DNA of 17,587 bases, taken from positions 1 through 17,587 of the forward strand of contig CAIKKP010000057.1 in NCBI GenBank assembly GCA_903828055.1, written 5' to 3'. Positions within the stretch are counted from its first letter, which is position 1. Each line of letters opens with the position of its first letter. The notes under the pieces were generated by a model, which made no database searches, was not told the origin of the DNA, and worked only from the letters and a program-made list of their open reading frames with translations. Source of the DNA: an uncultured bacterium. GTDB taxonomy: Bacteria; Patescibacteriota; Andersenbacteria; UBA10190; CAIZMI01. Shown piece after piece: positions 3,914 through 13,617 of this stretch. Made by a program: the position numbers and the translations under genes.

Positions 3914-5554
3914 TTATTGCGGATCTGGTTCACAAGCGGTATGCTTTTGACGCGATAAATAAGCCAAGGAGAGGTGGCCGAGTGGTCGAAGGCGCGGCTC
4001 TCGAAAAGCCGTAGGGGCGCAAGCTTCTCGTGGGTTCGAATCCCACCCTCTCCGCCAGTTTGTACTTTTCGTAAAATCGTAGTCGGTTGCCTTCGCGCGT
4101 TGCGCTTCGGCGTGATATTTCGACGCGATTCGCCACGCGGGTTGGGGGGAAAACGACAACGACCGCTCGGCGATGCGGAAGTTCGAACCAATCTTTTTGA
4201 GAAAATCCCGTCCCGCGACGGGATTTTCTTGTTGAGCGATATTTTCGGCTTGGTTAGCCTCTTTTATGAAGTTTATCATCAGTTCGAACCGATTTTTGCT
4301 CTTTGTTCCAAAAGCGGAGATTTTCTCTTCTAAATCTTTTTTAGCAAGCATAAGTTTTTGTTTTTTCGCAACATATTCCATTTGTGATAAATTTCCGTCC
4401 AGTTGTAAATCAAGCAAACGATCAAGTTTTGTTTCTAGATCCACGAGTTCATCTCTCGTCTTTTGGACATGAAAGCTTTCCGCTTGGACGCCCTCCATTT
4501 TCTCTTTTTCAAATTCCGCAATACTCGCTTTTGCCCAACCGTCTGACAAAGAAACTTTTTTGATCACCTCCTTTATTTGAGAAGTGATGGCGTCCTCTCT
4601 CGCATACCTTTGTGTGCAAGGATTTTTCCGTTTCGTACATCGCAAATAGTTATGTCCTTTTTGCGTTTCAGTGGTAATGAAGCAACCGCACTCCCCGCAA
4701 CGGAAAAATCCTCTGTACACATAAGGTTTGAGTTTTGGCGTTTTCGGTTTTGATTTATTCATCATCACTTCTTGAACGGAATCAAAAAGCTTCTTTGTGA
4801 TAATCGGTTCATGCTTTCCGTCATACAGTTCATCGTTATATTCAATCATTCCGTAATAGATTTTGTTCTTAAGCATATATTGATAATTTGAGACGGAAAG
4901 CATTTTACCTTTCTTGCCAACCAAGCCTAGGGAATTGATCATCTTTCGCACTTGAGCAAGAGGATATTCACCAGTGGCGTACATTTCAAACGCCCGCTTG
5001 ATATACTTTGCCTTTTCTTTGTCCACGGCGATACAGCGAGCATTTTTATCGTTCACATAGCCCAATGGCGCCCAAGCGGGCCAGATGCCATTGCGTAACT
5101 TCTGGCGAATACCTCTCTTGATATTTTCCGACAGATTATCCACATAGTACTTTGATTGCCCAAAAGCGATTGATAACATAAATTTTCCCTGTGGTGTCGG
5201 ATCAAACCAAAAAGTAGGAAATTTTAGCGTGGTTATTTTCCCAGTATCTACCAGATAGATTATCCGTCCGCCGTCTATGGAATTGCGAGCTAAGCGGTCA
5301 GGGTGCCACGCTAAAATTCCTTCTGCTTCATTTTTCTCTATGCAAGAGATCATTTCGTTGAAAATATCTCTGCCCGGCTCTTTGGCGGTTTTACTTTCCA
5401 CAAACTCACGGACGATATTCAATCCTTCTTTTTTCGCAAATTCCCGCAATTCAAACATTTGCGCTTCAATACTCAAAACCTGCCTTTCAGGTTCGTCCGT
5501 GGATTTGCGGGCATAGAGAAAAATCTTTTTGGTTTGTAAATTTATGTTGTCCAT
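3914..5554 (-). CDS. Large serine recombinase with resolvase/invertase catalytic domain, recombinase domain and zinc ribbon
   Basis: The N-terminus YARKST...S has the catalytic Ser context of serine recombinases, followed by an RLARN motif. A CxxC...C...C zinc ribbon lies around residues 286-313 (FRCGECGCFITTETQKGHNYLRCTKRKNPC), and a coiled-coil region follows. Residues 1-456 are unique sequence. Residues 457-546 are encoded by repeat X and the antisense strand of the tRNA, so this is a probable read-through tail. Confidence 0.85.
   Translation of the reverse strand: MDNINLQTKKIFLYARKSTDEPERQVLSIEAQMFELREFAKKEGLNIVREFVESKTAKEPGRDIFNEMISCIEKNEAEGILAWHPDRLARNSIDGGRIIYLVDTGKITTLKFPTFWFDPTPQGKFMLSIAFGQSKYYVDNLSENIKRGIRQKLRNGIWPAWAPLGYVNDKNARCIAVDKEKAKYIKRAFEMYATGEYPLAQVRKMINSLGLVGKKGKMLSVSNYQYMLKNKIYYGMIEYNDELYDGKHEPIITKKLFDSVQEVMMNKSKPKTPKLKPYVYRGFFRCGECGCFITTETQKGHNYLRCTKRKNPCTQRYAREDAITSQIKEVIKKVSLSDGWAKASIAEFEKEKMEGVQAESFHVQKTRDELVDLETKLDRLLDLQLDGNLSQMEYVAKKQKLMLAKKDLEEKISAFGTKSKNRFELMINFIKEANQAENIAQQENPVAGRDFLKKIGSNFRIAERSLSFSPQPAWRIASKYHAEAQRAKATDYDFTKSTNWRRGWDSNPREACAPTAFREPRLRPLGHLSLAYLSRQKHTACEPDPQ
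3968..4057 (+). tRNA. tRNA-Ser with anticodon CGA; class II with a long variable arm and encoded CCA
   Basis: Acceptor GGAGAGG pairs with CCTCTCC. The D arm is GCCGAGTGGTCGAAGGCG. The anticodon stem cggct/agccg carries loop CTCGAAA, giving anticodon CGA. A 19-nt variable arm is followed by T arm GTGGG-TTCGAAT-CCCAC, discriminator G and CCA. It closely resembles canonical bacterial tRNA-Ser. Confidence 0.9.
4052..4185 (+). repeat. Inverted repeat X, copy 1 (134 bp, about 58 % GC)
   Basis: Exact reverse complement of 5618-5751, checked base by base (134 of 134). It begins with CCGCCA, the last 6 nt of the tRNA-Ser. Confidence 0.95.
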
Positions 5555-5585
5555 TCTTTATTTTTGGTTAGCTAAAAGATTGGTT

Positions 5586-5602
5586 GTATCGCCGTGCGAT
5601 AC
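5586..5602. promoter_or_regulatory. 7-bp perfect palindrome in the recombinase upstream leader
   Basis: gtatcgc-cgt-gcgatac lies between the recombinase start codon (5554) and repeat X' (5618). It is a candidate operator. Confidence 0.3.
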
Positions 5603-5617
5603 CCACGCATTGCGCGG

Positions 5618-5751
5618 CGAACTTCCGCATCGCCGAGCGGTCGTTGTCGTTTTCCCCCCAACCCGCGTGGCGAATCGCGTCGAAATATCACGCCGAAGCG
5701 CAACGCGCGAAGGCAACCGACTACGATTTTACGAAAAGTACAAACTGGCGG
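5618..5751 (-). repeat. Inverted repeat X, copy 2
   Basis: Reverse complement of 4052-4185 at 100 % identity. Confidence 0.95.
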
Positions 5752-5900
5752 GCGTTTTTGGACGAAGTTCGAACGTCGTTCGACGCAAACGCGTGACGCC
5801 CCCCCAGCAACGAAACGCGACGACGCCGATTCGTAACGCGAAAAAGGCATGGGAATAAATGAGTACTGTGTATTCTATAACGCAATCTTTATTTTTGCGA
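5748..5900 (+). repeat. Inverted repeat Y, copy 1 (153 bp)
   Basis: Reverse-complement match to 7675-7830 at about 94 % identity. The differences are C7 versus C9 in a homopolymer, a 12-nt divergent patch and one further substitution. It overlaps X' by 4 nt (GCGG). Confidence 0.9.
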
Positions 5901-5916
5901 CACGCCCTCTAAAAAT

Positions 5917-7638
5917 TCAAATAAAATTATTTAATTTTTTAGAAACAAAAAATGGTCCTATTGCTAAATACTTTATGTTTTTTGAATCAATAAAAGCTTC
6001 AATTGCTTGCCCTGGGTCATTAACGATCGGCAAGCCTTTAATATTGAACGATGTATTAATAATCAGAGGAATATTAGTTATATTTTCATATTCTTTTATG
6101 AGATCATAGTAAATACCATTATCATCGTTGTTTACTGTCTGAACTCGTACACTCCCATCAACATGTTGTGCTGCAGGTACTTTGTTACTGTATTCAGACT
6201 GTATTGCATCAACCAACAACATGTATGGCGATTTGGTTCCGCGTACCAGCCAATCTTTTGTTTTTTCTTCAAGAATAGAAATTGCAAAAGGACGAAATGA
6301 TTCCCTGTGTTTAGTTATGTTTAATTTTTCAATCATACTTTTATCAACGGCCGATGCAAGAATACTGCGCGCACCAAGAGCTCGGGGACCAAATTCTAAT
6401 CGTCCCTGAAACCACATAACGATTTCGCCCTCACTCAAAAGTCTGGCAACTTTTGTGTGAATTAAATTTTCCTTTGAATATGAAAATAAGTTTCCATGTT
6501 TCTTTAATTCATTTTCAATTTCCTTATTTGAGTACTCGGGGCCTAAATATGCATGACTAAACCGAACAGGTTTCTTTTCCTTGTTGAATTCTTGATGCAG
6601 TAAGTATTCCGCACCAATTGCTACACCTGCGTCATGCGATGCGGGCTGGATAAAAACCTCCTTGAATGGGGTTTTTTCTAAAATAAATCCATTTGTTACG
6701 GAATTCAAACAGACGCCACCAGCCATCACGAGTTTGCTTTTTTTTGTCTTATTATAAATATCATTTAGTTTTTCCAAAACTATCTCTTGTGTGTACTCTT
6801 GCCAAGTTGCCGCGACATCGAAATGGGCTTGCTTATATTGGCCTGATATGGCTGAAGGTTCGCCAATTAATTTTTCAAATTTCTCTGTTGGTTCTCCTTT
6901 GCAATCAGCTATTTTAAAATAAGAGGTATCTACATTTAGCCAGTCATTATCTTTTTCTGGAAAGAATTTCACAATATTTTTAAATTCACTCAAATATTTT
7001 GGCTTTCCAAGTGCAGCGAATGCCATCGTCGTGCCAGCCTTTTGCCAACCAGGCTCGAAACCGCAATATTCGCCTACTGCTCCCCAAACACATCCAATAG
7101 AATTGGGGTGATACAAAAATCCTTTTTGTTGTATTCCTTTTTTGTAATCAATTTGTCCCCACAAACTTGAATCATATTCTCCCCGCGCATCTATAGTTAA
7201 AAATGCGGCATCATCAAACCCCGAAGCATAAAATGCCGATGCGACATGTGCTTGGTGATGAATGTAAAATTTTATTTTTACGTTTGAAGAAAGTTTTCCG
7301 ATTCTCTTTTCAAAAAGATTAGCAATTGTTCTTAGTTGCCATAACTTTTTTAAGCTCTTTTTAAAAACGTAAAATGGCGGATGATATTGGAACAAGTATT
7401 CTTTAATAATTCGATTAAAAAATAGTTCTTTGGTGTCCCAACCTACGGCAACGCCTTTTAAATCTTTACTTGTAATGCCAGCCTTTTTGAAACAATATTT
7501 AATGGCATTTTCTGGAAAACCGGAATAATGTTTTTTTTGAGTAAATCGTTCTTCTTCAACTGCAACAATAATATTTCCCTCATCATCGATGAGGCAAGCA
7601 CTACTATCGTGTGAATAAGCATTTAGGCCAAGATACAT
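5917..7638 (-). CDS. Carbamoyltransferase of the NodU/CmcH family
   Basis: 573 aa. The N-terminus MYLGLNAYSHDSSACLIDDEGNIIVAVEEERFTQKKHYSGFP is the hallmark of NodU/CmcH/TobZ-type carbamoyltransferases, and the length is typical for the family. Confidence 0.9.
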   Translation of the reverse strand: MYLGLNAYSHDSSACLIDDEGNIIVAVEEERFTQKKHYSGFPENAIKYCFKKAGITSKDLKGVAVGWDTKELFFNRIIKEYLFQYHPPFYVFKKSLKKLWQLRTIANLFEKRIGKLSSNVKIKFYIHHQAHVASAFYASGFDDAAFLTIDARGEYDSSLWGQIDYKKGIQQKGFLYHPNSIGCVWGAVGEYCGFEPGWQKAGTTMAFAALGKPKYLSEFKNIVKFFPEKDNDWLNVDTSYFKIADCKGEPTEKFEKLIGEPSAISGQYKQAHFDVAATWQEYTQEIVLEKLNDIYNKTKKSKLVMAGGVCLNSVTNGFILEKTPFKEVFIQPASHDAGVAIGAEYLLHQEFNKEKKPVRFSHAYLGPEYSNKEIENELKKHGNLFSYSKENLIHTKVARLLSEGEIVMWFQGRLEFGPRALGARSILASAVDKSMIEKLNITKHRESFRPFAISILEEKTKDWLVRGTKSPYMLLVDAIQSEYSNKVPAAQHVDGSVRVQTVNNDDNGIYYDLIKEYENITNIPLIINTSFNIKGLPIVNDPGQAIEAFIDSKNIKYLAIGPFFVSKKLNNFI

Positions 7639-7674
7639 GGATATTGCATTAATGATCTGATCTTATAATAGTTC

Positions 7675-7830
7675 TTCGCAAAAATAAAGATTGCGTTATA
7701 GAATACACAGTACTCATTTATTCCCATGCCTTTTTCGCGCTACGAATCGGCGTCGTCGCGTTTCGTTGCTGGGGGGGGGCGTCACGCGTTGTCAGCGAAA
7801 CACGTTCGAACTTCGTCCAAAAACGCCCGC
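7675..7830 (-). repeat. Inverted repeat Y, copy 2 (155 bp)
   Basis: Reverse complement of 5748-5900. It ends with CCGC at the outer junction. Confidence 0.9.
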
Positions 7831-7839
7831 AAAATAATG

Positions 7840-7867
7840 AAACGCCCTTGTGGCGTTTTGTTATTTT
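7840..7867. terminator. Terminator-like hairpin
   Basis: aaacgcc (7840-7846) pairs with ggcgttt (7852-7858) around loop cttgt, followed by tgttatttt. It lies at the outer edge of repeat Y'. Confidence 0.35.
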
Positions 7868-7977
7868 GCCTGAGCAACCAACTGCTTGGTTGCGAGTGGG
7901 ATTCGAACGGTTCGCGTTGTCCAGCAGGACCGCGAACCGGTGGCCAGAAATTTGCAAATCATTGCAAGTTTCGAGGC

Positions 7978-7992
7978 CGAATCCCACCCTCT
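7978..7992 (+). repeat. Partial duplicate of the tRNA-Ser 3' segment, a candidate attR core
   Basis: 15 of 15 identity to 4037-4051, with mismatches on both flanks. An inverted partner, gtgggattcgaa, lies at 7897-7908. Confidence 0.4.
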
Positions 7993-8087
7993 TTGCAGTA
8001 AGAATTCTTTTCCTTATCGTTGACAGTATCGAATTAGCGTGTAAAGTTTATCAACATTGGTAATTTATAAATAATTGCAATATTGAT

Positions 8088-8531: not shown

Positions 8532-8948
8532 ATATAAGCACTGTCAGGGTTACAAAATCTTTTAGGGTATACGCAATAATGGGTTGGAGTCTCGTCCTTG
8601 CGAGGCTTTTCAAGGCCGAAGCAATCTCCCGTTAAAAATTACTACTTCATAGCACTCATTCTTGAGATTGCCACGCTGTTCGACAACCCTGAGCTTCCCT
8701 CTCGATCCTGAGCTCGAGGTCGAAGAGCAGTCGAAGGGCCTTGTCCTCCGCCAGCCGGCGGAATCACGCATGATCAATGGCTCGCAAAGACGCGAATTGT
8801 TTCAATTTTGTTTCTGATATGGCTTATGTTTATCTATTAATCCAGATGATTTACGTATGATCTTCATGGGTTGTTTCTTTAAATAAGTCGCATATCGTTT
8901 AGAATATTGAAGCTTACCTACGCTTACGGTTTGTGCTATTATTTACTT

Positions 8949-10187
8949 ATGCCTACAGAAAAGAATTCCGGAGCAATAGACGCGGAAGTGATAAAAGAGC
9001 CATCTTTGAAGGAGATTCTTGACGATAAGGAACTTGGGCGTGGTTTTAAGACGTGGTTAGAAGGACAAAAAAGGGAGGATTTAATGGTTCGTATGTTGTC
9101 TGGGAAATTGGAAAGTGATGATCTGAAGACGTTGGCGTCAGAAACGGATAAGTTTTTAGAGCGAACGAGTCAAAGTGGCGAAATAAAGAAACAAATTTCA
9201 GAAACCGATGAAATTAGTACACTGGTTGAGGCATCAAACTCGGATGACTTAAAAGATTTGGTTAAACTTTTTGGTGTGGATGGTATTAAGGAGGCTTTTG
9301 GGGATGTGTTGGATAAAATCGCTTTGATGCCCGGTGATGAGCTTGCGAATGTTTACAAAGTTTTTAATGAGCGACGTGAAGCGGGGAAGTTGGTGGAACA
9401 ACAAAAAGCCGAATTTAACAGTATGTTGGAAAAGTTGAATTTGTCACAAGAAGAGGCAAAAGAAGTCGCAGGTATTCCGATATGGGAAGTAAGACAAAAA
9501 AAGGTGGCTGAGTTGTGGCGTAGTAAGGGGTTAGAAAAAACCGAGGAAAAAAGTATTTGGTTTATAAAATGGAATAAAAAGGTGTGGCCGCCGGAACAAG
9601 AGGAATTTATGAAAATGGATGCTGAGGATTTTTCCAAGGCGCTTAAAATTAATGAGTGGACAATAACTGAAAAACAAATTGAGAAGGCGGAAAAAGCGTT
9701 AAAGGAACGGCAGAAGTCTTTAGTGGAATCACTGAACGCTACCGCCTCTATCGATGGTATTGCAGAACTCAATCGTCATTTGATAGGGGAAAAGGAAAAA
9801 CCGGACAAAACAATGAGTTTCAAAGAAGTGAAACAGGAACTGAAAAAAGAAAAGGACAAGGAAAACATTTCTCGTGAATTTTTTGAGTATGCGGAACGCG
9901 GGTTCGCTGATTATATTGAAGAGGCTGGCTACCCGATGGGTACGAAAGATTTGCAGATGGCTGCCGCAAGTGATTTTTATCGAAAGTTTCAGGACAATCG
10001 CAAATTACAACAGAACAAACGTGGCGGATTATGGTCGTCTATCTATCAAACTGTTCTTGAGCCGTTAGTTCAAGAATTATTGACCGAACTACAGACAGAT
10101 GATCGCTTTAATGTGACAACAAGAGTTGAGAAGAAACGCGGCGTAGCTGACAAAAATTGGTATAATTTATCAAAGAAAACAAAATGA
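8949..10187 (+). CDS. Hypothetical K/E-rich soluble protein, first gene of a four-gene operon
   Basis: The ORF is open from TTG 8907. An ATG at 8949 lies directly downstream of TGcTATTAT (8934-8942), so a leaderless start is plausible. The protein is charged, largely helical, and has no recognisable domain or TM. Its stop overlaps the next start in ATGA. Confidence 0.5.
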   Translation: MPTEKNSGAIDAEVIKEPSLKEILDDKELGRGFKTWLEGQKREDLMVRMLSGKLESDDLKTLASETDKFLERTSQSGEIKKQISETDEISTLVEASNSDDLKDLVKLFGVDGIKEAFGDVLDKIALMPGDELANVYKVFNERREAGKLVEQQKAEFNSMLEKLNLSQEEAKEVAGIPIWEVRQKKVAELWRSKGLEKTEEKSIWFIKWNKKVWPPEQEEFMKMDAEDFSKALKINEWTITEKQIEKAEKALKERQKSLVESLNATASIDGIAELNRHLIGEKEKPDKTMSFKEVKQELKKEKDKENISREFFEYAERGFADYIEEAGYPMGTKDLQMAAASDFYRKFQDNRKLQQNKRGGLWSSIYQTVLEPLVQELLTELQTDDRFNVTTRVEKKRGVADKNWYNLSKKTK

Positions 10188-10474
10188 CCGAACTCGCCAT
10201 TCAACTTGAAAAGCTAATTGAAGTCGGTGATGAAAAAGCCGTGCGCGCTTTTGTTATTGAACACATTAAAGAGTTTCCGGAAGAAACAAGAAATCAAATC
10301 ATCTTTGCTTTTTTTACCGAAGCGATGGAAAACGACACCAAGGCCAAGCAAGCGCTCGCGGGAATAATTGGTCAAGGGTTGGATGAATTGAAACAAATTA
10401 ATAAAGACCTAGCCAATCTTGGCGATAAGAAAGCGATTTTGGACGTACAAAAGAAGATTCAGGGGATAAAGTAG
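10184..10474 (+). CDS. Hypothetical 96-aa protein
   Basis: The ATG overlaps the upstream TGA in ATGA. Coding-like composition, no recognisable domain. Confidence 0.5.
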   Translation: MTELAIQLEKLIEVGDEKAVRAFVIEHIKEFPEETRNQIIFAFFTEAMENDTKAKQALAGIIGQGLDELKQINKDLANLGDKKAILDVQKKIQGIK

Positions 10475-10687
10475 GACGCGCACTACGTCAGACATAACCC
10501 CTCTTGCGCTGGCACCCTCTCGAACATCCACCGGATGTTCTCGGGGCATCCGCCGCGCCACTTTGATAAGGGGAGATAACTTGGTGTCGTATTTCTTCCA
10601 TTTTTCAGGGGAAGGCGGGGATGAGTTTGGTTGTTGCTTTTGATATGTTTGTTTATTCGTTAGAAAAGCGTCATAATTGACGTAGCT

Positions 10688-11152
10688 ATGCCAACTGAAA
10701 CAAGAAAAGAAAACCCCGAAGGCAGTTTAGTTTTTGAAAATTCGGAAAAAGCGAAGCAGTTTGCCGAGCGCGTGAAAGAAAACTTAGAACAAAAGAATGA
10801 GTCTGAACCTGGCATGGAAAGGCGTAACGAACTTACTGAAAAACGCATTAAAGACGCAATTCGTGAAGAATTGGAGAACGAAACAAACGGTGCCGGTTTG
10901 GCTACTGTTGCGGAAGGCAAGGGTGAATGGCAGTATTCCGCCGAGGATCGCGCGGGTGTACAACAATATGTAAACGTGGCTTTCGCTACCTCCGTTCAAA
11001 AAGCGGTGGAAGAAATGATGCGAGAAAAAATTGTCGCGGGCAGTAAAGCCGACGAAGCGTCCACTTATCGTAAACTTGATTTATTTCATGACACGCTCAC
11101 CGATCATCTCTACCAAGATATGACGGCCAGAAAAATGATTCCACCGGGATGA
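10688..11152 (+). CDS. Hypothetical 154-aa acidic protein
   Basis: Preceded by TTGTTT, a 17-nt spacer and CATAAT (about 10648-10676). Its stop overlaps the next ATG in ATGA. No TM and no recognisable domain. Confidence 0.5.
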   Translation: MPTETRKENPEGSLVFENSEKAKQFAERVKENLEQKNESEPGMERRNELTEKRIKDAIREELENETNGAGLATVAEGKGEWQYSAEDRAGVQQYVNVAFATSVQKAVEEMMREKIVAGSKADEASTYRKLDLFHDTLTDHLYQDMTARKMIPPG

Positions 11153-13617
11153 TTCAGTTACTTGTTCTTTTCTTGTTGTTGATTATTGTAGGGATTATCA
11201 CCTATTTGGTTTTGAAGTATTTGCAGGAAGAAAGATTACTCTCTTCTTTACATTTGATTTTGCTGGAAGTGACGGTGCCGAAAGACTTACCGCAACAAGA
11301 AAAAGACCGTGAGGGAACGGTGCAGGAACAAATTATGCGCGGTTCGCAGTTTTTAGCCAGTTTGGCGGGTTTGCGTGAAGAAAATTTCATTAAGAATCTG
11401 ATTTTTGGTAAACCGACATGGGGTTTCGAAATTGTCGCGCATCCGAATGGTGAGATTATTTTCTTTGTTTCGGTACCACGTCGTTATGAAGAATTTATGG
11501 AAAAACAAATTCTTGCTTTTTATCCGCGTGCCGATGTGAAGCGCGTGGCGGATTATACGATTTTTGAAGAAGGTGACACGGTTGAGGGGGGAGTTGTAAA
11601 ACAACATCATAAAAAATATTTACCGTTGAAGACTTTTGAGGATTTGCCGTCCGACCCGATGCAGGGGATTACACAGGCGTTATCTAAAATGGAAAAAGGC
11701 GACGGTGGCGCGGTGCAATTTATTGTGCGACCGGCATCCGCGCGGATTCGTGTGAAGGGACGGCGTGTTACGCGTCAGGTGGCGTTGGGAAAAGAAAAAT
11801 CGGTGCGACACGGGACTTCTTCTTTTGGCGAGGCGGCTCGCGGTTTGGGGCGCACAGCTAACAATTCCTTATTGAAAAATAAAGAGCAAAATACGCGACA
11901 AGACGATCGGGAAGATAAGTGGCAAGCACAAATGTCGCCTGCGGAACAAGAACGACTAGAACGCGTAGATAAAAAAACCGGTGAATATCAGTTTGAAGTG
12001 ACAATGCGCTTAATCGTTTCCTGCAAAACAAAAGAAACAGCCGAATCACATTTTATGGTACTCAAAGAATCACTGACGCAATTTGGCGACCCTTCTTTAA
12101 ACGAGTTGAGTACGCATCGTCAAACGAAACGTAGTTTTTTCCGTGATTATATATTCCGCACGTTTAAAAAATCGCAATGCATGGTGTTGTCGTTGACGGA
12201 GCTTTTGTCACTTTTCCATTTCCCGTTATCTACCACTGAAACACCCAATATTCGTTGGCGCACGTCAAGAAGTGTCGCGGCACCGGCCAATTTGCCCCAA
12301 AACGGTATTTTATTAGGTTACAACGATTACCGAGGGATTAAGACTCCTATTCGGCTTCAAAGAGAGGACAGGCGTCGTCATATGTATATGATCGGTCAAA
12401 CTGGAACCGGTAAAACAACGCTCTTCAAAAATATGATTATGCAGGATATTCGCAACGGAGAAGGAGTCGGGGTGGTTGATCCGCACGGACAATTGATTGA
12501 AGATATTCTTTTGCAGATTCCTAGAGAGCGGGCCGAAGATGTGATTATTTTTGATCCGCGCGATACCGATCGGCCGTTGGGGTTGAATATGTTGGAGGCG
12601 CGCAATCCGGCGCAACGCGATCTTGTTGTTTCCGAACTAATTATGATTATCGAAAAACTGGCCACACGGATGAATCCGGAATCGATCGGTCCGATGTTTG
12701 AACATTATTTGAGGAACGCGCTTTTGACACTGGTGGAAGACCCAGACTCAACAATGATCGATATCTCTCGTCTTTTTACCGACAAGGCCTTTCGTGATTG
12801 GCTGGTGGCAAAAGTGAAAAACCCGATAGTGCGGGAGTTTTGGGAGAAAGAGTATGCTCAATCTCTGAAGGGGCAACAGTCGGCCGATATGTTGTCGTAT
12901 GTTATCAGTAAGCTTGGGCGTTTTATTGGTAATGAGGTAATTCGCAATATCATCGGTCAGCCAAAAAGTTCGTTTGATCTGCGTGAAATAATGGATAATA
13001 AAAAAATCTTACTCGTTAATTTGTCGAAGGGTTCGTTGGGTGATATTAATGCCGATTTGCTTGGGTTTATCTTAGTCAGTAAGTTGCAAATTACGGCGCT
13101 TTCCAGAACGGATATTCCGGAAAATCAACGTAAGGATTTTTATCTTTATCTCGATGAGTTTCAAAATTTCACCACCGATACTGTCGGGACAATTTTAAGC
13201 GAGGCGCGTAAATATCGCTTGGACTTGAATTTGACGCATCAGTTTATCGCGCAACTTTCGGATGAAATCAGAGAAGCTGTTTTTGGTAACGTTGGTACGG
13301 TAATTTCTTATCGTGTCGGTGTGGAAGATTCGGAGCTGATGGCAAAACAACTCGCCCCTGTTTTTGACGAGTATGATTTGATTAATGTTCCAAATTATAA
13401 TTGTTTCACGCGCTTACTTGCCAAAAATCAACCGCAACGTCCATTTTCCATGAAAGCGTCACCGCCACCACCGGGGGGCGACGAAGAACTTCGTCAGAAT
13501 TTGTATGAATTGTCACGTCTTAAATATGGTCGACCAAAACAGGAAGTGGAAGAGAGAATATTGGAACGGCTGAAAGTAGCGACTGCTCCCAGCCTGTCCG
13601 GTATGGGTTCGCGCTAA
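11149..13617 (+). CDS. TrwB/TraD/VirD4-like type IV coupling protein family P-loop ATPase, membrane-anchored
   Basis: 822 aa with an N-terminal TM (LVLFLLLIIVGIITYLVL). Walker A MIGQTGTGKTTL is followed by VVDPHGQLIEDIL...IIFDPRDTDRPLGLNMLE, matching the TrwB pattern GATGTGKS...IVDPNGD...ILNP.D.R. Walker B is YLYLDEFQNF. The C-terminal LTHQFIAQL...GNVGTVISYRVG matches the Q..QL...GN motif of coupling proteins. Confidence 0.6.
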   Translation: MIQLLVLFLLLIIVGIITYLVLKYLQEERLLSSLHLILLEVTVPKDLPQQEKDREGTVQEQIMRGSQFLASLAGLREENFIKNLIFGKPTWGFEIVAHPNGEIIFFVSVPRRYEEFMEKQILAFYPRADVKRVADYTIFEEGDTVEGGVVKQHHKKYLPLKTFEDLPSDPMQGITQALSKMEKGDGGAVQFIVRPASARIRVKGRRVTRQVALGKEKSVRHGTSSFGEAARGLGRTANNSLLKNKEQNTRQDDREDKWQAQMSPAEQERLERVDKKTGEYQFEVTMRLIVSCKTKETAESHFMVLKESLTQFGDPSLNELSTHRQTKRSFFRDYIFRTFKKSQCMVLSLTELLSLFHFPLSTTETPNIRWRTSRSVAAPANLPQNGILLGYNDYRGIKTPIRLQREDRRRHMYMIGQTGTGKTTLFKNMIMQDIRNGEGVGVVDPHGQLIEDILLQIPRERAEDVIIFDPRDTDRPLGLNMLEARNPAQRDLVVSELIMIIEKLATRMNPESIGPMFEHYLRNALLTLVEDPDSTMIDISRLFTDKAFRDWLVAKVKNPIVREFWEKEYAQSLKGQQSADMLSYVISKLGRFIGNEVIRNIIGQPKSSFDLREIMDNKKILLVNLSKGSLGDINADLLGFILVSKLQITALSRTDIPENQRKDFYLYLDEFQNFTTDTVGTILSEARKYRLDLNLTHQFIAQLSDEIREAVFGNVGTVISYRVGVEDSELMAKQLAPVFDEYDLINVPNYNCFTRLLAKNQPQRPFSMKASPPPPGGDEELRQNLYELSRLKYGRPKQEVEERILERLKVATAPSLSGMGSR

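Follow-up and report, generated by a model that had tools for sequence, protein, structure and literature searches.

Serine integrases are major tools of genome engineering, and the control of the direction of their reactions is an active structural question. For the canonical enzymes, attP is not a partner of attL or attR, and excision depends on a directionality factor. An attP inside a gene is known from systems with tyrosine recombinases, namely the SSV1-type (fusellovirus) integrases and the integration-dependent immunity systems of mycobacteriophages; the gene hit by integration is the integrase, which is split in two, in SSV1, and the repressor in the mycobacteriophages. In the yeast 2-micron plasmid, FLP, also a tyrosine recombinase, acts on FRT sites (FRT × FRT) located in 599-bp inverted repeats, and the reaction serves plasmid copy-number amplification. 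The tail-fibre switches Gin, Cin, Min, and Pin and the Rci shufflon are invertible systems that swap C-termini. Tn4451 (TnpX), Tn5397 (TndX), and SCCmec (Ccr) are moved by large serine recombinases (LSRs) via a circular intermediate, without a separate excisionase.

We analyzed a stretch of 17,587 nucleotides (contig CAIKKP010000057.1; hereafter, the window) from an uncultured bacterium of the Andersenbacteria (Patescibacteriota). Positions 4056-7830 very probably constitute a single mobile element of about 3.78 kb, which is moved by its own LSR and contains its attachment region twice, in inverted orientation. This unusual layout recurs in hundreds of uncultured bacterial genomes and is apparently undescribed; our search of the literature for this architecture found no description.

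The LSR shares its catalytic, recombinase, and zinc-ribbon domains and a predicted long coiled coil with the phiC31, Bxb1, A118 (LI), and SPbeta (SprA) integrases. As in those systems, a short crossover core is common to attP, attB, attL, and attR, and a recognition motif lies 5 bp nearer to the core in attB than in attP (PMC3783163). Several features set these elements apart from those systems. The target is the extreme 3' end of a tRNA gene (acceptor end, discriminator base, and CCA region), attP is located within the ORF of the integrase, and a further attP copy in inverted orientation is always present. No directionality-factor candidate is shared by the elements, which are tiny (about 3.8 kb in the window) and not phage-borne. 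As in SSV1 and the mycobacteriophages, one of the element's own genes is rewritten or split upon integration, so that its product depends on the integrated state; those systems have no inverted spare copy, and here, unlike in them, the exchange is confined to the final 14 codons, which give way to a predictable antisense-tRNA tail. The predicted circle resembles the 2-micron plasmid in that two unique segments are split by two inverted, site-bearing repeats and the isomers differ in orientation; unlike the plasmid, the element has no replication genes, integrates in a tRNA gene, and uses an enzyme family that normally refuses attP × attP. Inverted repeats in the coding sequence would join one gene body to alternative 3' ends, as in the Gin, Cin, Min, Pin, and Rci systems. 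Unlike in these systems, the flipping gene body would be the recombinase itself, the alternative ends are the element's own tail and antisense tRNA, and a large serine integrase takes the place of the small invertase or tyrosine recombinase. Tn4451, Tn5397, and SCCmec are likewise small cargo-bearing elements moved by a large serine recombinase, but they lack long inverted repeats, a tRNA-end target, and an attP inside the recombinase ORF.

Structure of the locus and its three junctions

The features of the locus are as follows.

3914-5554, minus strand: LSR ORF in the integrated state, 546 aa (Pfam Resolvase, Recombinase, and Zn_ribbon_recom)
3968-4057, plus strand: tRNA-Ser(CGA), integration target (ARAGORN; Rfam tRNA, 59.5 bits)
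4035-4040, plus strand: T-loop TTCGAA of the tRNA 3' half, which represents the B arm of attB; it starts 17 nt before the core
4052-4055, plus strand: attL core CCGC, the point from which attL is identical to the reverse complement of X'Y
4052-4185, plus strand: X arm, the P' arm of attP; a 134-nt perfect inverted repeat with 5618-5751
4196-4232, plus strand: hairpin and then a T-run on the tRNA-sense strand, within the LSR ORF (codons ENPVAGRDF)
5618-5751, plus strand: X' arm, in which the 3' coding end of the LSR is repeated in inverted orientation, upstream of the start codon of the gene
5618-5900, plus strand: X'Y (S), an intact attP-like site of 283 bp with the core GCGG at 5748-5751 (junction alignment)
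5748-5900, plus strand: Y arm (P arm of attP), with the final 14 codons of the LSR and about 105 nt of 3' untranslated sequence
5794-5796, plus strand: stop codon of the silent copy of the native LSR C-terminus in X'Y (TNWR followed by AFLDEVRTSFDANA)
5917-7638, minus strand: cargo, a carbamoyltransferase of the NodU/CmcH type, 573 aa (Pfam Carbam_trans_N and Carbam_trans_C)
7676-7830, plus strand: Y' arm, which pairs with Y and has the attR core CCGC at 7827-7830
7831-7867, plus strand: hairpin directly after the core (RNA fold)
7874-7995, plus strand: structured module (fold z-score about -9)

X and X' are exact reverse complements (134 nt, 100% identity). Y pairs with Y' as an imperfect inverted repeat of about 153 nt with about 94% identity; the mismatches are a 16-nt patch at 5777-5793, a C-run of seven versus nine, and one substitution. 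As the tRNA gene occupies 3968-4057, X begins 6 nt within its 3' end, and the attL core runs from the end of the acceptor stem through the discriminator G to the first C of CCA. A preliminary description of this DNA had placed the end of X' at 5751 and the start of Y at 5748, with GCGG in common, and had noted CCGC at the outer junction of X and at the close of the outer junction of Y'; we confirmed these positions (4052-4055 and 7827-7830 for the outer junctions). It had also read the locus as an intact site between two hybrids (tRNA/X, X'/Y, and Y'/flank). This reading is borne out by a three-way alignment of attL, the reverse complement of X'Y, and attR, in which a left-hybrid, an intact, and a right-hybrid site have CCGC in common: attL reads CTCTCCGC and then CAGTTTG, the reverse complement of X'Y reads AACGCCCGC and then CAGTTTG, and attR reads AACGCCCGC and then AAAATAATG. 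Since X'Y is an intact attP-like site of which tRNA/X and Y'/flank are the halves, 4056-7830 is very probably one integrated element; since X'Y is also the reverse complement of the excision join of the outer junctions, this one element has two inverted attachment copies.

CCGC is frequent in the window (150 occurrences, 125 expected); thus, the tetranucleotide by itself is uninformative and was rejected as a stand-alone signal. The CCGC of the junctions is significant because of its position and because of the comparison with other elements, as about 20 independent three-junction elements share the core. In the three-junction elements compared, the left boundary of identity was always the first C of CCGC. 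The earlier proposal of site-specific recombination with a crossover core in CCGC/GCGG is supported by the junction alignments from the window and from other genomes. Junctions at variable positions with no conserved tetranucleotide were looked for in those genomes, and the same position and the same core were found. From these alignments, the putative crossover core may be narrowed to CCGC, with CC, CG, or GC as candidate dinucleotides. A 12-bp imperfect dyad seen by eye in the window was not upheld across 16 elements, in which no family-wide dyad symmetry around the core was found (scores at the random level), and the claim of a centered GG/CC dinucleotide was dropped with it.

The palindrome GTTCGAAC, previously noted near the repeat ends, is indeed present at 4181, 5767, and 7804, and a further copy, overlooked in the preliminary description, is located at 4282. 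The four occurrences compare with 0.35 expected, and four were reached in 0 of 200 shuffles. They are not independent signals of the repeat ends, because all four lie in the LSR coding sequence or its silent inverted copies, at the codons GSNF, RFEL, and EVRT, the EVRT copy being in both Y and Y'. In Y and Y', GTTCGAAC matches the tRNA T-loop TTCGAA with an offset of 5 bp, which is the offset to be expected between an attP arm and an attB arm; in the Y arm (5767-5774), its distance to the core on the complementary strand is 22 nt.

On the minus strand, the X arm encodes about 45 C-terminal residues of the LSR, with the tail NFRIAERSL...TNWR conserved among homologues, and Y' encodes a second intact tail variant, AFLDEVRTCFADNA (translation read from the sequence). 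The element is located between the tRNA-Ser, which is left complete through CCGCCA, and the hairpin at 7831-7867. This hairpin is probably the original tRNA-Ser terminator (B' side), moved 3.8 kb by the insertion; a terminator scan gave a minus-strand site only (7858-7840), and the plus strand has a stem and then GTTATTTTG. The hairpin at 4196-4232 probably terminates transcription that reads through from the tRNA into the element. It contains a terminator-like match at 4210-4224, is also found in locus L016, and is preserved in L099 by a compensatory stem change. The module at 7874-7995, which contains copies of the tRNA-Ser 3' end in antisense (7896-7908) and in sense (7978-7992), is part of the flank and not of the element; similar modules were found after tRNA-Ser in L008-L014. 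Rfam gave no match to the repeats or to this downstream module, and the sub-threshold matches sX4 and BSnc120 were rejected as chance.

Related elements and their tRNA targets

We found more than 7,900 homologues of the LSR. At least 595 LSR loci are in species-representative genomes versus 4 in viral contigs (IMG/VR), and a phage origin was rejected on this count. LSRs that are 87-90% identical occur in bins assigned to different Patescibacteria lineages, and the cargo of related elements differs (restriction-modification and other defense genes, HTH regulators, and transporters). The locus thereby shows the features of a genomic islet: insertion at a tRNA 3' end, an intact tRNA, variable cargo, and horizontal spread.

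Among 80 related loci, 55 have the X/X' repeat, and 20 have the abutting Y/Y' repeat as well. The three-junction pattern was seen in L016, L022-24, L026, L027, L030, L036, L066, L070, L073, L088, and L095, and the cores of the independent three-junction elements are CCGC, CCGCC, or CCGCCA. The core length is mostly 4-6 nt and reaches 10 nt in L070, L088, and L069; the core of the Gln-tRNA subfamily is CAGCAA. The target tRNAs of related elements are tRNA-Ser (four isoacceptors), Asp, Glu, and Gln. An antisense tRNA directly follows the LSR in 63 of the 69 loci that have enough downstream sequence, out of the 80 analyzed (54 Ser, 4 Glu, 3 Gln, and 2 Asp).

The distance from the start of TTCGA to the core is 22 nt in the element arm and 17 nt in the tRNA arm in 31 of 33 elements. 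For the LI integrase, the motif of the zinc-ribbon domain is shifted by 5 bp between attP and attB (PMC3783163). Judged by sequence, the 5-bp shift of TTCGA matches this published attB/attP signature of serine integrases (PMC3783163), and it covers one arm per site because the B' flanks are variable.

Flipped isomers of the LSR cassette and of the cargo cassette occur in other genomes. Identical LSR proteins are located beside cargo in opposite orientations (L099/L103 versus L100-102 and L104; L105 versus L106), and in L098 a tRNA-Ser lies immediately upstream of a native-tailed LSR that reads away from the tRNA. No inverted isomer of the element in the window was found among six assemblies, in which L001-L007 and L118-L121 are collinear with the window.

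Neither an empty attB nor a circular form was recovered for this organism by a metagenome string scan, by the synteny of relatives, or from contigs with identical neighbors. The metagenome scan with CCCACCCTCTCCGCAAAATAATG gave seven loci, all from other organisms, which share only the tRNA end and a similar downstream module. Synteny with relatives ends after the DUF4349 gene, and the closest homologues of this gene (73% and 64% identity) have other genes downstream and no tRNA-Ser there. Among the contigs with an identical response regulator, the element is present in every one with enough upstream sequence.

The recombinase and its C-terminal tail

The catalytic domain of the LSR (Pfam PF00239, E=1e-20) covers residues 12-157, and R16 and S18 are invariant in alignments of 12 and 19 sequences. 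The protein also matches PF07508 (E=5e-16) and PF13408 (E=2e-7), with C286, C289, C306, and C313 invariant. An AF2 model has two long helices (338-385 and 391-434) at moderate confidence, which form the predicted coiled coil; the model of the native-tailed LSR (pLDDT 67 overall, pTM 0.34) is too weak for fold searches or tail docking. Matches to solved structures were obtained for the catalytic domain only (E about 1e-5).

The core falls on the LSR codons TGG-CGG (W-R). As the core is within the LSR ORF, integration swaps the native tail (AFLDEVRT...) for a tail encoded by the antisense tRNA: the native last 14 codons, AFLDEVRTSFDANA, are dropped, and the integrated ORF reads ...WRRGWDSNPRE..., with the residues past ...TNWR coming from the antisense tRNA and upstream DNA. 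A terminal helix is predicted, with modest confidence, for the 14 residues lost. The antisense-tRNA tail WRRxRDSNPR closes about 65 of 120 homologues, and about 22 of the 120 end in W(R/L)CFLDEVRTFF..NP.., with variation at the amino-acid level. In the internal copies, the native tail is open to its stop codon in all 32 of 32 elements, and on the pattern of its sequence this tail is real coding sequence.

No start codon is conserved among elements in the internal X'Y copy, and in some it is absent altogether; a stand-alone mini-protein or directionality factor (RDF) encoded there by the open frame was rejected for lack of a conserved start. We found no candidate RDF elsewhere, and no second gene is conserved among related elements. 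The lack of an RDF gene makes a classical phage-type integrase system less probable and leaves the membership in the enzyme family unaffected.

Alternative explanations and a possible mechanism

X'Y may be no working attachment site and serve instead as a spare 3' end or a regulatory region (for example, an LSR operator) that is gene-converted, with the chemistry taking place at the outer junctions. Its position directly upstream of the LSR start codon and the lack of a conserved start codon of its own agree with this, as does the prohibition of attP × attL and attP × attR by the canonical integrase rules; the identity of the arms (median 98.5% within an element, about 74% between different elements) fits gene conversion. 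We consider this explanation unlikely, because the internal copy retains the full core and both arms in all elements examined, and because the LSR cassette of L034 lies between two inverted tRNA-Ser copies, as if the internal attP had recombined with a second tRNA-Ser.

The LSR cassette of L034 also has no adjacent Y arm. Such a cassette would be expected if two separate foldback or TIR-bounded elements (X-LSR-X' and Y-cargo-Y') had been inserted side by side or nested at a CCGC target, and so would the long inverted repeat that each gene has of its own and the chain of three repeat-bounded cassettes in L028. Nested or adjacent insertions into a short target had been offered in the preliminary description, and they are contradicted by the single reading frame over the X'/Y junction, which encodes the conserved native LSR tail. 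In nearly all elements, even those without a detected Y', a Y-type arm with GTTCGAAC before the core is present at the outer end of X', and the cargo cassette has no recombinase of its own. Inverted repeats are present as in a TIR-bounded transposon, but no target-site duplication was found at the element. The outer ends of the whole element (the start of X and the end of Y') are not inverted repeats of each other. An origin from two elements is, on these grounds, very unlikely.

Both genes are flanked by inverted repeats, and the orientation isomers of both cassettes are found in nature; thus, the locus may act like an invertible switch without belonging to the small-invertase inverton or shufflon family, as its enzyme is a large serine recombinase and it is horizontally mobile. 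That it is a resident, non-mobile switch, in which the recombinase acts as an invertase to vary its own expression or that of the cargo, is extremely unlikely. The domain set is that of a large serine integrase and not of a small invertase, near-identical LSRs occur in distant lineages with different tRNA genes and unrelated cargo, the element is inserted between the tRNA and the hairpin, and a flip between the near-identical Y arms would hardly alter the expression of the cargo. The chance that chimeric inverted joins were made at the repeats during assembly, to which the many related contigs that end exactly at repeat ends might point, is practically negligible, because the same collinear sequence is found in contigs from at least six independent assemblies with different pipelines, and dozens of other genomes show this architecture in sequences that differ.

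For the single element moved by its own LSR, the free form would be a circle that joins the outer end of Y' to the outer end of X. The join would rebuild a second X'Y (283 bp) in inverted orientation, and the two attachment copies would separate the LSR gene from the cargo gene. Sequence comparison shows that one copy recombined with the 3' end of tRNA-Ser(CGA) within CCGC to yield attL and attR, and that the other copy (5618-5900) was left intact; the empty attB before insertion would read from the tRNA through CTCTCCGC into AAAATAATGAAACGCC. According to the LSR paradigm, dimers on attP and attB would make a 2-nt staggered double-strand cut in CCGC, followed by rotation and religation. A folded single-strand attP, as in the CTX phage, was set aside because a serine-recombinase cut of a dumbbell substrate would give hairpin-capped chromosome ends. 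The internal X'Y may serve as a silent spare 3' end and attP. Through the inverted repeats, the LSR and cargo cassettes could flip by homologous recombination or by the LSR, and a flip of the LSR cassette would bring back the enzyme with its native tail, with no need for excision. As the function of the tail swap and the duplicated attP, we infer a switch that would couple the form or activity of the recombinase to the integration state.

It is a doubtful, though conceivable, extension that the C-terminus of the integrase records the state of the element and sets directionality without an accessory factor (an RDF-free system). The enzyme in the circle, with its native terminal helix, would integrate; integration at the tRNA end would swap the helix for the WRRxRDSNPR tail, by which the activity would be altered or silenced; and the inverted spare attP and 3' end would allow the gene to flip back to the native form. 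If this is true, the elements would represent a self-contained, RDF-free serine integrase system across Patescibacteria and Elusimicrobiota, with a near-universal tRNA target.

The family combines an unusual set of features: crossover at the invariant acceptor end, discriminator, and CCA of a tRNA, an attP in the integrase frame, an obligatory inverted spare site, and a very wide distribution. As the attachment site lies in the integrase's own frame, integration edits the enzyme, and the family is a simple, testable system for the state-dependent control of a recombinase as well as a source of integrases for a highly conserved natural target. To our knowledge, classical conjugative elements and known temperate phages are largely missing from Patescibacteria. 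The hosts are mostly uncultured bacteria with small genomes, in which this family carries defense and metabolic genes, and it suggests a path by which genes move among Patescibacteria.

Repeats and genes at the tRNA-Ser(CGA) locus

The following features, among them two inverted-repeat pairs (X with X', and Y with Y'), were located in the window.

3968-4057: tRNA-Ser(CGA), found by ARAGORN and Rfam
4052-4185 and 5618-5751: X and X', inverted, 134 nt, exactly complementary
Bracketed by X and X', minus strand: ORF of a large serine recombinase (LSR) with Resolvase, Recombinase and Zn_ribbon_recom domains
5748-5900 and 7676-7830: Y and Y', inverted, about 153 nt paired, about 94%
Bracketed by Y and Y': carbamoyltransferase gene
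7831-7867: hairpin directly past the right-hand core

Y and Y' are not perfect complements: there is a 16-nt patch of differences at 5777-5793, the C-run has 7 residues in one and 9 in the other, and a single base is substituted. From the coordinates of the tRNA, X starts 6 nt within its 3' end. The LSR ORF (546 aa) has no stop before X or within it; it crosses the antisense tRNA as well and ends at a stop at 3914-3916. The preliminary description proposed CCGC/GCGG as a crossover core common to all three junctions. The overlap of X' and Y is indeed GCGG (5748-5751) in both coordinates and sequence, and CCGC opens X (4052-4055) and closes Y' (7827-7830). As CCGC occurs 150 times in the window, the tetranucleotide is meaningful only by its position. 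The motif GTTCGAAC was found four times, against 0.35 expected; the copies previously noted at 4181, 5767 and 7804 are correctly placed, and another one is present at 4282. Those at 4181 and 4282 correspond to the conserved codons GSNF and RFEL. An assembly artefact is ruled out, since contigs of at least six separate assemblies have the identical arrangement. The window itself corresponds to contig k141_73783 of ENA ERZ27313541.

Insertion of one element at the tRNA-Ser 3' end

When aligned on the core, attL (tRNA and X) reads ...CCCACCCTCTCCGC/CAGTTTGTAC, the reverse complement of X'Y reads ...CCAAAAACGCCCGC/CAGTTTGTAC, and attR (Y' and the flank) reads ...CCAAAAACGCCCGC/AAAATAATGA. Thus, X'Y (5618-5900) is one intact sequence, and the outer junctions are the product of recombination between its reverse complement, Y' joined to X, and a tRNA sequence ...CTCTCCGC/AAAATAATG. 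To judge from the sequences, this is the pattern expected of attL, attP and attR. One element was inserted at the 3' end of tRNA-Ser, the crossover was limited to CCGC, and the element carries an internal, intact, inverted copy of attP. The earlier suggestion of site-specific recombination, with an intact site flanked by two hybrids, is therefore supported. Two adjacent insertions, suggested as an alternative, are unsupported because X'Y is a single intact sequence and the outer junctions are its halves. Among 16 elements compared, no dyad symmetry around the core placed the cut dinucleotide.

LSR homologues number in the thousands (60-90% identity). At least 595 loci were found in species-representative genomes, mainly of Patescibacteria (CPR) and Elusimicrobiota, and only four loci in viral contigs. 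We analysed 80 of the at least 595 loci; 69 had enough downstream sequence, and in 63 of these an antisense tRNA lies directly past the LSR (54 Ser, covering all four isoacceptors, 4 Glu, 3 Gln and 2 Asp). The X and X' repeat is present in 55 of the 80 loci (modal lengths, 134 and 120 nt; median identity, 98.5%), and 20 of the 80 have, in addition, a Y and Y' pair next to X', overlapping it by a few nucleotides. CCGC is common to all three junctions in L023, L027, L036, L066 and L073; the core is CCGCC in L016, L022 and L095, CCGCCA in L024, L026 and L030, longer in L069, L070 and L088, and CAGCAA in the Gln subfamily. In elements with three junctions, identity invariably begins, on the left, at the first C of CCGC; the core comprises the last acceptor-stem bases, the discriminator G and the beginning of CCA. 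Variable junction positions, which had been considered a sign of chance overlap, were not seen; the core position is constant. As the arms of different elements are only about 74% identical, this conservation is not mere shared ancestry of one insertion. The architecture is conserved and horizontally spread, and the cargo is variable.

The distance from the start of TTCGA(A) to the core that follows is 17 nt on the tRNA side (the T-loop) and 22 nt on the Y' arm, with 31 of 33 elements conforming. In the LI integrase, the zinc-ribbon-domain motif is 5 bp nearer the centre in attB than in attP; site identity rests on this shift (PMC3783163). Considering these offsets and the LI shift, GTTCGAAC in Y and Y' is best read as the zinc-ribbon-domain motif; it also codes for the residues E-V-R-T in the tail of the LSR. 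Domains, catalytic residues, core and 5-bp shift all place the enzyme in the large serine recombinase family.

Exchange of the recombinase C-terminus

On the LSR coding strand, the core is TGG CGG (W-R). The plus-strand frame across X' and Y reads ...TNWR/AFLDEVRTSFDANA and stops at 5796, and Y' encodes a variant tail, AFLDEVRTCFADNA, followed by a stop. About 22 of 120 homologues end in W(R/L)CFLDEVRTFF..NP.., with variants (CLLDKVRNYF, LLVEVRTFF) whose amino-acid-level variation shows selection on the protein, and about 65 of the 120 end in WRRxRDSNPR..., the translated antisense T-arm. As the core is within the LSR gene and the tails are alternative, integration edits the C-terminus of the enzyme. 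In an AF2 model of the native-tailed homologue P0001 (moderate overall confidence, pLDDT 67), the tail is a terminal helix (residues 498-513) past a coiled coil.

In all of 32 elements, the native tail of the internal copy is open to its stop, and no start codon is conserved among them, which rules out a separate protein; the copy seems to be a silent spare 3' end. The sole clustered difference between Y and Y' (5777-5793 versus 7785-7801) is in the tail-coding part (SFDANA versus CFADNA). Frame and stop codon are kept in both; thus, both tail copies appear to be under coding constraint.

Isomers, arrays and flanking regions

In the related locus L098, tRNA-Ser(GCT) is directly upstream of an LSR reading away, with a native tail and a degenerate upstream arm; L098 is a flipped or alternative-integration form. 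Behind identical LSR proteins, the same cargo lies in opposite orientations in L099 and L103 versus L100-102 and L104, and in L105 versus L106. In L034 (9667-11589), an LSR cassette is located between inverted copies of tRNA-Ser(GGA) (219-nt inverted repeat, 93%), the product expected from recombination of the internal attP with a second tRNA-Ser gene. In L028 (174-7701), three repeat-bounded cassettes follow one another in a chain, their arms abutting. These two loci suggest an ability of the internal attP to engage with further sites, and of cassettes to accumulate in arrays. L015 (1-2357; sister sample ERZ27313539) is 100% identical to the window from 5751 to 4173 (1,579 nt; arm and whole LSR body); beyond this, its 3' arm comes from a different lineage (about 74% identity) and is joined to a Y-type arm, which is intact, and to an HTH gene. 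Whether a mosaic element or a chimera of the assembly, this arrangement gives the LSR a native tail, ENWRCFLDEVRTFFDENPE. Many related contigs break exactly at arm ends, an effect to be expected from multiple copies or from a mixture of orientations. For the element in the window, the at least six assemblies carrying the sequence showed no isomer.

L016 (4600-11600; GCA_040772285.1, 1.06-Mb contig) has two family elements at adjacent tRNA-Ser genes (TGA, GCT); in the first, the internal site is degenerate and the CCGCC core is lost. Related cargo (L099, L105, L016) often consists of anti-phage or restriction-type genes, for example MmeI/Eco57I-like methylase-nuclease, SNF2/PLD helicase, AAA_13, N6_N4 methylases and DpnII. 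Y arms are often adjoined by a small Xre-type HTH gene, absent from the window's element.

The hairpin at 7831-7867 is plausibly the original terminator of the tRNA, moved 3.8 kb by the insertion. The region just past attR (7831-7995) folds very strongly (z about -9, both strands), forming two hairpins with a three-way fold behind them. In the outer stem of the latter, antisense (7896-7908, GTGGGATTCGAAC) and sense (7978-7992, CGAATCCCACCCTCT) copies of the tRNA-Ser 3' end are paired. The region has no Rfam match. Similar modules lie behind tRNA-Ser(GCT) in unrelated contigs (L008-L014; a tandem duplicate with a 138-nt period in L009). Past attR, the geometry is the same in L066, partial in L036 and L023, and absent from 14 other flanks. 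Possible readings of the module are an attB relic, an attB decoy or a tRNA-like minihelix. Another hairpin (4196-4232) lies within the LSR ORF, at codons ENPVAGRDF, and only its tRNA-sense strand shows a T-run. This hairpin is kept in relatives, with a compensatory stem change in L099 (CCCG/CGGG to CACG/CGTG); it is probably a terminator of tRNA read-through, doubling as coding sequence. Among the downstream host genes (8907-13617) is one for a TrwB/VirD4-like coupling ATPase (DUF8128 and TrwB_AAD_bind, 822 aa), with three ORFs, small or uncharacterised, ahead of it. On the parent contig, an rve-family integrase gene is located just outside the left end of the window (L001, 15474-16640). Thus, the neighbourhood may contain further functions related to mobile elements or type IV secretion.

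Proposed mechanism and relation to known systems

From the attL, attP and attR layout, we infer a circular free form with Y' joined to X. According to the LSR paradigm, LSR dimers on attP of this circular intermediate and on attB would make a 2-nt staggered double-strand cut, followed by subunit rotation and religation. The predicted circle would contain the 283-bp region in two inverted copies.

Unlike phage integrases, the system has its attP within the LSR ORF, an obligatory inverted attP copy and a tRNA end as target, and the element is tiny, not phage-borne and without an evident recombination directionality factor. In SSV1-type integrases and integration-dependent immunity, integration rewrites a gene of the element, as it does here. 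The geometry of the predicted circle resembles that of the 2-micron plasmid, and the swapping of 3' ends resembles Gin/Min/shufflon systems. The present system belongs to none of these, and no description of this architecture was found in the literature searched. A minority of tycheposons (Prochlorococcus) are LSR-bearing elements at tRNA genes, and this layout was not reported there.

We hypothesize that the inverted repeats permit flipping, through RecA or the LSR. High arm identity within elements versus fast divergence between them fits frequent gene conversion or flipping. Flipping would bring back the native-tailed enzyme, and the form of the recombinase would thus be tied to the integration state. 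Specialists in recombination and in mobile elements should find the system of real interest.
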